Below are positions 9,689 to 13,775 of a stretch of 64,000 nucleotides of DNA, piece after piece. The stretch lies in assembly GCA_964361785.1 (NCBI GenBank), contig CAYIBX010000003.1:4769-68768 (forward strand), given 5' to 3'. Position 1 is the first letter of the stretch; each line of letters begins with the position of its first letter. The notes beneath the pieces were generated by a model. That model was given only the letters and a program-made list of their open reading frames with translations, did not search any database and was not told the DNA's origin. The translations under genes were made by a program, and so were the position numbers. Source of the stretch: an uncultured Gammaproteobacteria bacterium (GTDB lineage Bacteria; Patescibacteriota; Microgenomatia; UBA10105; UBA927).

Positions 9689-10357
9689 TTAAGGCTGTAT
9701 GCTTTTGAGCATTTGTTCCGCTTGCACATGAAAGTATCGAACGATATCATCTGATTTAATTGATCCGATAATTTTCGGCCACGTGATAATAGTACTCGCG
9801 TTCGATAAACTATAGGAAAACATAAAAGGTTCAAGTCCCATATCCTTCTTTTTTGCGCGTTCAAAAAGTGCATCAAATGTCCATGAACTATTGTGAAGTA
9901 TGAAGTAAAGATCTATAAAATCCTTAGGTTCGAGTCTTCCAAAAATTGCATTAATTTTATTAGCACCAATATTCTCTAAGTTATCTACGCGTATACCATC
10001 AACAATGGCAATCTCGCCAAAATGAACCGGCTGTTCTCGAACAATATCAATTCGTTGACTCACTCCATCAGGAAAATCCAAGTATATTTCCTTGTATGTT
10101 TGTGTAGAAATTTTTTCAGCGTACGATGCGTCATTATTTAATGCAATTGATTGTATGAATTCTCGTATACGATCCATATCAAAAAATTCTGAAGAAAAAA
10201 AATCAAAATCCTTACTCTGCCTGTGCCCAAAGTAAAACGCTGAAAGGGCAGTCCCTCCCGTTAAAAAAAATGATTGGGTAAGAGGTGAAGAAAAAAACTC
10301 TGCAAGTATCTTTTTTTGAACATCAGTAAGTAGTCGAGCTGTGGAAAGATTATACAT
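9689..10357 (-). CDS. AbiEii/AbiGii-family nucleotidyltransferase toxin (DUF1814)
   Basis: 'FFLTGGTALSAFYF...KDFDFF' is the nucleotidyltransferase motif of AbiEii. The start ('MYNLST') overlaps the stop of the upstream ORF in the arrangement ATGTATAA. Confidence 0.7.
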   Translation of the reverse strand: MYNLSTARLLTDVQKKILAEFFSSPLTQSFFLTGGTALSAFYFGHRQSKDFDFFSSEFFDMDRIREFIQSIALNNDASYAEKISTQTYKEIYLDFPDGVSQRIDIVREQPVHFGEIAIVDGIRVDNLENIGANKINAIFGRLEPKDFIDLYFILHNSSWTFDALFERAKKKDMGLEPFMFSYSLSNASTIITWPKIIGSIKSDDIVRYFHVQAEQMLKSIQP

Positions 10358-10637
10358 AGTACCCCCACGTAGTAAGAGCAAATTTCCATGCCCCAATCAT
10401 TTCTTTTCGCATTCGAAGTTTTGAAAATTCCGATACGATGTCCGCAACCGTAAGATATTTCCATACATCATCATATCTGACATGTGATAATATACGAGCC
10501 ATCATCCATTGCCGTTCGACTGGATTATCCCCCGCCAAAATACGCCGAACATCATCTTCCGTCAGGTCATAATCCCAGAGAAAATACGGACGTTTCAAGG
10601 CTACCTGTGTCATAAATATATTGTACCACGGAAACAT
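10350..10637 (-). CDS. hypothetical small protein, putative cognate partner or antitoxin of the AbiEii toxin
   Basis: 95-aa ORF translationally coupled to the AbiEii gene by an 8-nt overlap. Confidence 0.45.
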   Translation of the reverse strand: MFPWYNIFMTQVALKRPYFLWDYDLTEDDVRRILAGDNPVERQWMMARILSHVRYDDVWKYLTVADIVSEFSKLRMRKEMIGAWKFALTTWGYYV

Positions 10638-11660: not shown

Positions 11661-11900
11661 ATGTTACAAACAATTATTAAAGTTGGAAATTCCGCAGCAG
11701 TGTTAATACCAAAATCCGTTTTATTAACAGAAGGCCTTAAAATTGGTTCCACAGTTAACTTCACCGTTGAATCACCAAAAAAAACGGCAAAAACAATCGT
11801 TGATAAAGAAGTCTATGCAGTAGCAACCGACCTTCTCAACCGGTATCTTCCTGCATTCAAGAAGCTCGCTAAACCACATGATCAAATATCTCTCAACTGA
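11661..11900 (+). CDS. AbrB/MazE-fold antitoxin
   Basis: 'IKVGNSAAVLIPKSV' is the SpoVT/AbrB swapped-hairpin signature. The gene overlaps the downstream Doc gene. Confidence 0.75.
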   Translation: MLQTIIKVGNSAAVLIPKSVLLTEGLKIGSTVNFTVESPKKTAKTIVDKEVYAVATDLLNRYLPAFKKLAKPHDQISLN

Positions 11901-12264
11901 AGATGTTCTTCTTCTTCACCATCTCTTGATAGAAAAAAGTGGTGGATCACACGGCCTTCGTGATGCAGGACTTCTGGATGCTGCGATTCACCGACCACAA
12001 GCTACCTTTGCTAGTCAAGATTTATACCCTACGCTTTTTGATAAAGTTGGTGCACTATGTCATTCGCTTATCAAAAATCATGCGTTTGTCGATGGAAACA
12101 AGCGCACATCACTCCTTTCTGCGATGACGATGCTCGAACTCAATGGTTATATATTTAAAAGCGAGCAAAAAGAACTTGTTTTATTTGGACTCAAAATTGA
12201 CAACGATCGTTTATCGGCCGAAACTATCGCTATATGGTTCAAAAACCATTGCACAAAAATATAA
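11878..12264 (+). CDS. doc: Doc/Fic-family toxin
   Basis: Contains the Fic/Doc motif 'HAFVDGNKRTS' (HxFx(D/N)GNKR). Confidence 0.85.
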   Translation: MIKYLSTEDVLLLHHLLIEKSGGSHGLRDAGLLDAAIHRPQATFASQDLYPTLFDKVGALCHSLIKNHAFVDGNKRTSLLSAMTMLELNGYIFKSEQKELVLFGLKIDNDRLSAETIAIWFKNHCTKI

Positions 12265-12576: not shown

Positions 12577-12627
12577 CTTTGCTTAGCTTCATCAAAACTG
12601 ATATACTACACAAGTACTTTTACGTAT
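12577..12627 (+). promoter_or_regulatory. sigma70-like promoter upstream of the intron-containing tRNA
   Basis: TTGCTT is followed 17 nt later by TATACT, about 8 nt before the predicted tRNA 5' end. Confidence 0.45.
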
Positions 12628-12909
12628 CGCGGGGTAGTGTAAAGTTGCACAGGAGGCTCAAATTGGGCCCACCAAGAAGCAATTCTTTGTGAGAATTTGG
12701 CTATATCGGTGGAATCCCGCTTCGCGGGACAATACCGAGGGAAGGCCGCCAATCATTATTGTGTTTTTAATGAAGGCGTGCCCCCGTAGAGACTACACGC
12801 CGAACTCCTACCAATGTGGCAGGATGATGATATAGTCCGACACTCTCAAGTAATTGGAGATAACAGATTGCATAATCTCCTAGGCTAGGTGCGATTCCTA
12901 GCCCCGCAA
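12628..12909 (+). tRNA. initiator-type tRNA-Met (anticodon CAU) interrupted by a group I intron
   Basis: The exons (12628-12658 and 12871-12909) join to give CGCGGGG-TA-GTGT-AAAGTT-GCAC-A-GGAGG-CT|CATAA-TCTCC-TAGG-CTAGG-TGCGATT-CCTAG-CCCCGCA-A. The anticodon loop is CUCAUAA and the T-arm is present. The acceptor stem carries a C1·A72 mismatch, a hallmark of bacterial initiator tRNA, and closely resembles E. coli tRNA-fMet (CGCGGGG...CCCCGCAACCA). The D-loop lacks GG, which is atypical. Confidence 0.75.
12659..12870 (+). ncRNA. group I intron (212 nt) in the anticodon loop of tRNA-Met(CAU)
   Basis: The R element 'GUAGAGACUACACG' and the S element 'GAUAUAGUCCGAC' match the Tetrahymena consensus ('GAGACUAAAUG' and 'AAGAUAUAGUCGG') and pair as P7 (GACUA/UAGUC). 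The 5' exon ends in U, which pairs with an IGS GGCC at 12666-12669. The intron ends with G. Confidence 0.75.
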
Positions 12910-12915
12910 CAAAAT

Positions 12916-12948
12916 TAAAAAAGATCCTCACATGAGGATCTTTTTTGG
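12916..12948. terminator. bidirectional rho-independent terminator
   Basis: AAAAAA-GATCCTC-ACAT-GAGGATC-TTTTTT is a perfect 7-bp stem flanked by an A-run and a T-run. Confidence 0.7.
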
Positions 12949-13699: not shown

Positions 13700-13771
13700 G
13701 TCAGGGTAGCTCAGTGGTAGAGCACCAGTATCATAAACTGGTCGTCGAGAGTTCGATCCTCTCTCCTGACA
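13700..13771 (+). tRNA. tRNA-Met (anticodon CAU), elongator type (or tRNA-Ile2 if modified to lysidine)
   Basis: GTCAGGG-TA-GCTC-AGTGGTA-GAGC-A-CCAGT-ATCATAA-ACTGG-TCGTC-GAGAG-TTCGATC-CTCTC-TCCTGAC-A. Positions 1 and 72 are paired and the D-loop has GG. Confidence 0.85.
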
Positions 13772-13775
13772 CACA

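Follow-up and report, generated by a model that had tools for sequence, protein, structure and literature searches.

Group I introns in the tRNA genes of Patescibacteria have been described by Nakagawa et al. (mSystems 2026; bioRxiv July 2025) in a survey of 95 complete genomes (PMC13011429). Introns at position 33/34 of tRNA-Met(CAU) are listed there for two Microgenomatia genomes, GCA_001029755.1 and GCA_013426185.1 (PMC13011429, Table 1, Table S3). The same site of tRNA-fMet is described as a well-characterised one in other phyla, no IC introns are reported among the tRNA introns of Patescibacteria, and a related tRNA-Asp intron from these bacteria self-splices in vitro (PMC13011429, section 7). 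The tRNA homologous to the one analysed here is called 'Met' in that work, without discussion of its initiator identity.

The stretch of DNA that was analysed (64,000 nucleotides, the window in what follows) carries an intron that is homologous to those of the two Microgenomatia genomes. Its host gene belongs to the same tRNA family (YGCGGGGUAGUGUA...GCAC...AGGCU|CAUAAUCU...) and is interrupted at the same site, the introns can be aligned throughout (with GGCUAUAUCGG, GUAGAGACUAYACGCC and GAYAUAGUCCGRCACUC in common), and all of them are compact and devoid of an endonuclease gene. The differences lie in the species and in the sequence, the nearest intron found being around 75% identical, and also in the tRNA itself, as the window gene has C1.A72 together with A18/G55 whereas both published genes have U1-A72 together with G18/U55. 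An earlier note on this DNA had called an intron in a tRNA of the fMet type notable for a CPR-like genome. Novelty cannot be claimed, as the same intron, site and tRNA were already listed (PMC13011429) and occur in roughly one in five of the sampled species. Because the same intron, site and lineage were published in 2025/2026, the window intron adds one more case to a known kind.

The interrupted gene and its family

A tRNA-Met(CAU) gene interrupted by a group I intron between tRNA positions 33 and 34 is present on the forward strand at 12628-12909, with the coordinates and segment lengths proposed in the earlier note. The 5' exon (12628-12658, +, 31 nt, tRNA positions 1-33, CGCGGGGUAGUGUAAAGUUGCACAGGAGGCU) ends in ...GGCU and consists of the acceptor strand CGCGGGG, the D-arm GUGU-AAAGUU-GCAC, the 5' strand of the anticodon stem GGAGG and the residues C32 and U33. 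The intron that follows (12659-12870, +, 212 nt) runs from CAAAUUGGGCC to GAUUG, with the omega-G at 12870. The 3' exon (12871-12909, +, 39 nt, tRNA positions 34-73, CAUAAUCUCCUAGGCUAGGUGCGAUUCCUAGCCCCGCAA) runs from CAUAAUCUCC to CCCCGCAA and is made up of the anticodon CAU, the residues AA, the stem strand UCUCC, the variable loop UAGG, the T-arm CUAGG-UGCGAUU-CCUAG, the acceptor strand CCCCGCA and A73; CCA is absent from the encoded 3' end. The predicted spliced junction reads GGAGGCU-CAUAAUCUCC, with GGAGGCUCAUAAUCUCC as the string that spans it. When the exons were joined, ARAGORN recognised them as tRNA-Met(CAU), and the same program overlooked the interrupted gene when run without intron search.

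The assignment of the intervening segment to the group I introns was checked with Rfam and was borne out. A scan of the whole 64 kb gave one group I intron match, to RF00028 (Intron_gpI) at 12649-12860 (+), which covered the full model (1-253) with 63.2 bits and an E-value of 1.1e-13, compared to a gathering cut-off of 50 bits. No ORF or homing endonuclease gene was found within the 212 nt of the window intron.

Upstream of the gene, a promoter-like TTGCTT-17 nt-TATACT was located with a regular expression at 12579-12607 (+), 21 nt from the 5' end of the tRNA. It may tentatively be regarded as a candidate promoter, and is a site that a consensus scan did not list. A palindromic terminator-like hairpin, AAAAAAGAUCCUCA...UGAGGAUCUUUUUU, is found at 12917-12946, 8 nt past the 3' end of the tRNA. 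The region upstream of the tRNA also holds, according to precomputed Pfam hits, a gene for an AbiEii-family toxin (9689-10396, -) and a MazE-like antitoxin/Fic-domain pair (11661-11900 and 11878-12264, +). The source contig comes from the 0.1 um fraction of Hainich groundwater (ERZ1292632).

To place the gene among its relatives, a pattern based on the exons was scanned against the GTDB species representatives, yielding at least 119 loci, among them the published CP011214 locus. The names attached to the matches listed include Gottesman-, Woese-, Shapiro-, Levy-, Ames- and Blackburnbacteria, and the same exon pattern gave no match in the viral contigs of IMG/VR. The title 'uncultured Gammaproteobacteria bacterium' is attached to many of the GTDB representative MAGs in which this Microgenomatia-type tRNA occurs; these titles, which come from binchicken/SRP co-assemblies, look like placeholder taxonomy rather than true affiliation.

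The family set used below comprises 113 full-length genes, that is, the window gene and those of 112 species representatives among the matches listed. In this listed set, 87 genes are uninterrupted and read ...GGCU-CAUAAUCU... straight through CU|CAUAA, and 26 (the window gene and 25 representatives) are interrupted, all at the identical site. Among the matches listed, the introns measure 184-266 nt, too short for any copy to encode a homing endonuclease, and in 26 of 26 a U precedes the intron and a G terminates it. The interrupted share thus amounts to 25 of the 112 full-length representatives listed, approximately a fifth, and four more incomplete loci among the matches listed appear to be interrupted too.

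In group I introns, the 5' splice site is preceded by a U that forms U.G with the guide and the intron terminates in G, and these rules place the junction at CU|CAUAA. In three intron-less members (L006, L017 and L053) the 5' exon is identical to that of the window and is directly followed by CAUAAUCUCC, and their 3' exons differ from that of the window at a few T-stem positions only. The predicted junction is therefore independently confirmed by intron-less relatives of the same tRNA family.

Fold of the intron

All the pairs of the group I core can be formed in the window. In P1, the exon segment GGCU (12655-12658, +) pairs with the guide GGCC (12666-12669, intron positions 8-11), which puts U12658.G12666 at the 5' splice site; both this pairing of the terminal U of the exon with the guide and the final G of the intron are thus present as described. 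G12665 and U12664 are able to pair with C12871 and A12872 (+), giving a P10 of 2 bp. P2 (12670-12691, +) is a hairpin with a GNRA loop, CACCAAGAA-GCAA-UUCUUUGUG, in which compensatory changes were detected at nine of nine pairs in the family. P3 (12696-12701 with 12799-12804, +) encloses P4 (12706-12710/12734-12738, +), P5 (12715-12719/12725-12729, +, as drawn in the hand-built structure), the hairpin segment of P6, P6a and P6b (12739-12785, +) and the 5' strand of P7. The R element GUAGAGACUACACG and the S element GAUAUAGUCCGAC were located at 12786-12799 (+) and 12829-12841 (+), respectively, and their complementarity through GACUA (12791-12795) and UAGUC (12833-12837) corresponds to the P7 pseudoknot, the guanosine-binding helix, which encloses P8 (12806-12813/12817-12824, +). 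The last element, P9 (CUCUCAA-GUAA-UUGGAG, 12843-12859, +), is again a hairpin with a GNRA loop.

The hand-built P1-P9 structure, including the P3/P7 pseudoknot, was tested for covariation in an alignment of 38 distinct interrupted genes, namely the window gene, 25 from genome representatives and 12 from metagenome contigs. The latter are the distinct tRNA-Met introns added by an intron-core pattern scan of metagenomes, which gave 125 matches. Overall, 86.7% of the cells in the 38 sequences were paired, compared to 29-49% when the partners were slid by 1-3 columns, and the covariation score was 0.290, a value of 0.136 not being exceeded by any slid version; in 500 shuffles the observed values were never reached. 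By helix, the paired fraction in the 38 sequences was 98.7% for P1, 100% for P3, 99.5% for P4 and P7, and 100% for P9, the pairs of which also covary. Four of the five P3 pairs tested covary in this alignment, and P7 shows one compensatory change, from AU to GC.

The lower alignment scores of P5, distal P6 and P8 are explained by their variable lengths. When these regions were folded without alignment, mean z values of -2.4 (P4-P5), -2.6 (P6) and -4.1 (P8) were obtained, with hairpins in nearly all members. RNAalifold recovered the cloverleaf of the tRNA in spite of the intron, each pair of the upper anticodon stem showing 13-16 double changes, and it also recovered P2, P3, P4, P6 and P9. The putative P1-P9 fold is thus supported by covariation in the 38 homologues.

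Two further features were seen in the alignment. The triplet AUG, which is the complement of CAU and allows a P10 of 3 bp, lies directly 5' of the guide in 29 of the 38 genes, and the window has UUG at this place, with its 2 bp. A receptor-like motif CCUAA...AUGG in P4-P5 was confined to members with the P9 loop GAAA (five) or with a loop that the script did not call (two), and it was found in none of the 28 members with GUAA, GCAA or GGAA as the P9 loop. Both the AUG/P10 complementarity and the association between P9 loop and receptor would fit a working ribozyme.

The core motif itself (AGAGACUAYACGCC...GAYAUAGUCCG) was also detected outside this tRNA, in 111 of the 125 metagenome matches. 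All six of these loci that were tested turned out to be 23S rRNA genes with the motif inside the gene; RF00028 matched in four of the six, and some loci had two motif matches. The same motif was present in 56 IMG/VR contigs classed as viral.

Identity of the tRNA and its maturation

Taken together, the gene is probably (at a probability of about 0.8) the initiator tRNA-Met(CAU) gene of a member of the Microgenomatia (Patescibacteria/CPR) from Hainich groundwater, split by an endonuclease-less group I intron, and the assignment of the tRNA as an initiator is judged just as probable by itself. The window tRNA has C1.A72, A73, G2:C71 and C3:G70. Its acceptor, CGCGGGG/CCCCGCA-A, is that of E. coli tRNA-fMet. 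The earlier description of an initiator-like tRNA with a CAU anticodon and C1.A72 can be maintained. In the 113 family members among the matches listed, the pair 1:72 is U-A in 80, C.A in 32 and A-U in one, and never G-C; A73 is invariant in the same listed genes.

The leading alternative, though an unlikely one, would accept the intron but assign it to a host tRNA that does not initiate, either the elongator tRNA-Met or a different tRNA with the CAU anticodon; the initiator would then be the second CAU tRNA or a gene that escaped detection. The D-stem pair A11:U24, with a purine at 11 and a pyrimidine at 24, is usually counted as a mark of bacterial initiators, and the window tRNA has U11:A24 instead, in a part of the D-stem that was fixed by the search pattern. 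A second such mark, three G:C pairs in a row (29:41, 30:40 and 31:39), is also absent from the window tRNA, and both absences favour a non-initiator host, as does the label 'Met', not 'fMet', of the published homologues, which goes back to what tRNAscan-SE called in relatives without the intron (PMC13011429). Against this, nearly all of the 113 genes among the matches listed have A:U, G:C, G.U as their lower anticodon stem (one has G:C at 29:41), where only the 3' strand of 29:41-31:39 is an independent observation because the search pattern fixed positions 29-31, and this au/GC/gu stem is a natural initiator variant of some mycoplasmas and alpha-proteobacteria (PMC5389676). None of the 113 listed members has G at position 1 or a strong pair at 1:72, which, like the acceptor shared with E. 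coli tRNA-fMet, argues against an elongator.

The remaining evidence against a non-initiator host comes from the other CAU tRNAs. The window holds one such gene besides the interrupted one, an uninterrupted tRNA-Met(CAU) at 13700-13772 (+), which has G1-C72 and a D-loop and T-loop of the canonical kind and is presumed to be the elongator. Among the matches listed, the surroundings of the family gene, taken as stretches of up to 8 kb from 119 genomes, contained 88 other tRNA(CAU) genes, 84 of which have G1 opposite C72 or U72 and are thus elongator-like at 1:72 (four were parsed otherwise); those that were inspected have canonical D-loops. The same 119 stretches among the matches listed contained 45 tRNA-Ile(UAU) genes, and the presence of this tRNA makes a CAU-anticodon isoleucine tRNA unnecessary. 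Two CAU tRNAs per Microgenomatia genome are reported (PMC13011429, Table S2), and GCA_013426185.1 has one uninterrupted CAU gene plus the interrupted one. It was also observed that around half of the neighbouring elongator-type genes among the matches listed have G1.U72 in place of G1-C72, and that the initiator-like tRNA is often clustered with the elongator-type tRNA-Met(CAU) and tRNA-Ile(UAU).

The D-loop of the window tRNA (AAAGUU, 12641-12646) had been described as lacking G18G19. This is correct for G18 but not for G19, which is kept and which, like C56, is invariant across the family among the matches listed. The T-loop (UGCGAUU, 12890-12896) has a matching change, G55. Among the 113 genes listed, a D-loop with NGG goes with U55 in 73 (and with C55 in two more), and a D-loop with NAG goes with G55 in 38, many of them uninterrupted. 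From this perfect covariation, the A18/G55 combination is predicted to take the place of the near-universal elbow contact between G18 and psi55. Only the initiator-like tRNA is affected, since the loops of the two further tRNAs of the window are canonical.

We infer that the intron is catalytically active, and maturation of the initiator would then proceed as follows. The precursor would be transcribed from around 12610 to the hairpin at 12917-12946, and the intron would fold into its P1-P9 core, GGCU being drawn from the anticodon stem and loop into P1 with the guide GGCC. Free guanosine bound in P7 would attack after U33; G12870 would then take the same site and the 3'-OH of U33 would attack after G12870, so that the exons would be joined as the loop CU-CAU-AA and the intron would be freed. 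RNase P, 3' trimming and CCA addition would finish the tRNA.

A decaying pseudogene, or an intron that has ceased to splice, with a functional intron-less copy elsewhere in the genome, is a very unlikely explanation of the same data. The unusual D-loop and T-loop of the window copy, its weak P10 with UUG where most members have AUG, and the fact that the window is only part of the genome could be read in this way. However, the loop changes form the perfect covariation found in 38 of the 113 listed members, the window forms all the core pairs and also has the invariant columns of the 38-sequence alignment (these by construction, as its row is part of it), and complete Microgenomatia genomes carry the interrupted gene and just one other CAU tRNA. 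Finally, a tRNA-Leu(CAA), returned by ARAGORN with the option -i as tRNA-Leu(caa) with a 212-nt intron beginning at position 35, was rejected as having a negligible probability, as moving the junction by four bases deprives the 5' splice site of its preceding U and the intron of its terminal G, all 87 uninterrupted homologues among the matches listed have CUCAUAA and so read CAU, and the identical miscall is documented for GCA_013426185.1 (PMC13011429, Table 1).

Standard tRNA finders overlook the interrupted gene or call it tRNA-Leu(CAA), and therefore the genome seems to be without an initiator tRNA and completeness estimates suffer. With the interrupted gene as a functional initiator gene, presumably in single copy in a source genome of which the window represents 64 kb only, there is probably no other initiator gene, and translation initiation would therefore depend on splicing. 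If this is the sole initiator, protein synthesis in the host depends on the activity of a ribozyme, and the same dependence may hold in around a fifth of the sampled Microgenomatia species among the matches listed. A more far-reaching proposal would be that the sole initiator gene of around a fifth of Microgenomatia species is split by an endonuclease-less intron of the Patescibacteria type and not of the cyanobacterial IC3 tRNA-fMet lineage, that site 33/34 was colonised independently by two lineages, and that all initiation in these reduced genomes passes through a guanosine- and Mg2+-dependent ribozyme step, possibly acting as a growth-state gate; as a whole, this proposal is doubtful.

Comparison with other group I introns

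The general phenomenon is already published, and what is added here to PMC13011429 is modest, being limited to the initiator assignment, the estimate of a frequency of around a fifth, the A18/G55 covariation and the comparison of lineage, and hence of distance, with the cyanobacterial tRNA-fMet intron. For this comparison, a sequence profile of the family was scored against introns from other hosts. The Elusimicrobiota tRNA-Phe 31/32 intron (IA3 in Table S5 of PMC13011429) reached 67.2 bits and the Patescibacteria tRNA-Asp 35/36 intron 55.6 bits, compared to 38 bits for the Bacteroidota fMet IC3 intron and 19-26 bits for the cyanobacterial fMet IC3 introns. In this comparison, made by sequence profile only, the IC3 fMet introns were thus not the closest kin of the family. 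From the two introns that are closest by the profile, those of Elusimicrobiota tRNA-Phe and Patescibacteria tRNA-Asp, the window intron differs in its host tRNA and in its insertion position within the anticodon loop, the Patescibacteria tRNA-Asp/Asn introns being located at 35/36 and the window intron at 33/34.

The intron of the Azoarcus pre-tRNA-Ile(CAU) (IC3) resembles the window intron in its compact size of around 200 nt and in the GNRA loops on P2 and P9, and some family members combine the CCUAAG...UAUGG receptor with GAAA as the P9 loop. In contrast, its insertion site (36/37) differs from the 33/34 of the window, and its score against the family profile was weak (15.7 bits, obtained with a partial Azoarcus sequence).

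With the cyanobacterial tRNA-fMet intron (IC3 in Table S5, PMC13011429), the window intron shares the insertion at CU|CAUAA in a homologous tRNA and the same splicing chemistry. However, some cyanobacterial copies carry a PD-(D/E)XK endonuclease gene, whereas the window intron has none, and the P2 and P9 regions are shorter in the window intron. The host tRNAs differ as well, as the cyanobacterial one has the canonical A11:U24 and GGG/CCC, neither of which is present in the window tRNA. Thus, the site is shared with the classic cyanobacterial intron, whereas the lineage of the intron, as judged from the profile scores, appears to be different.
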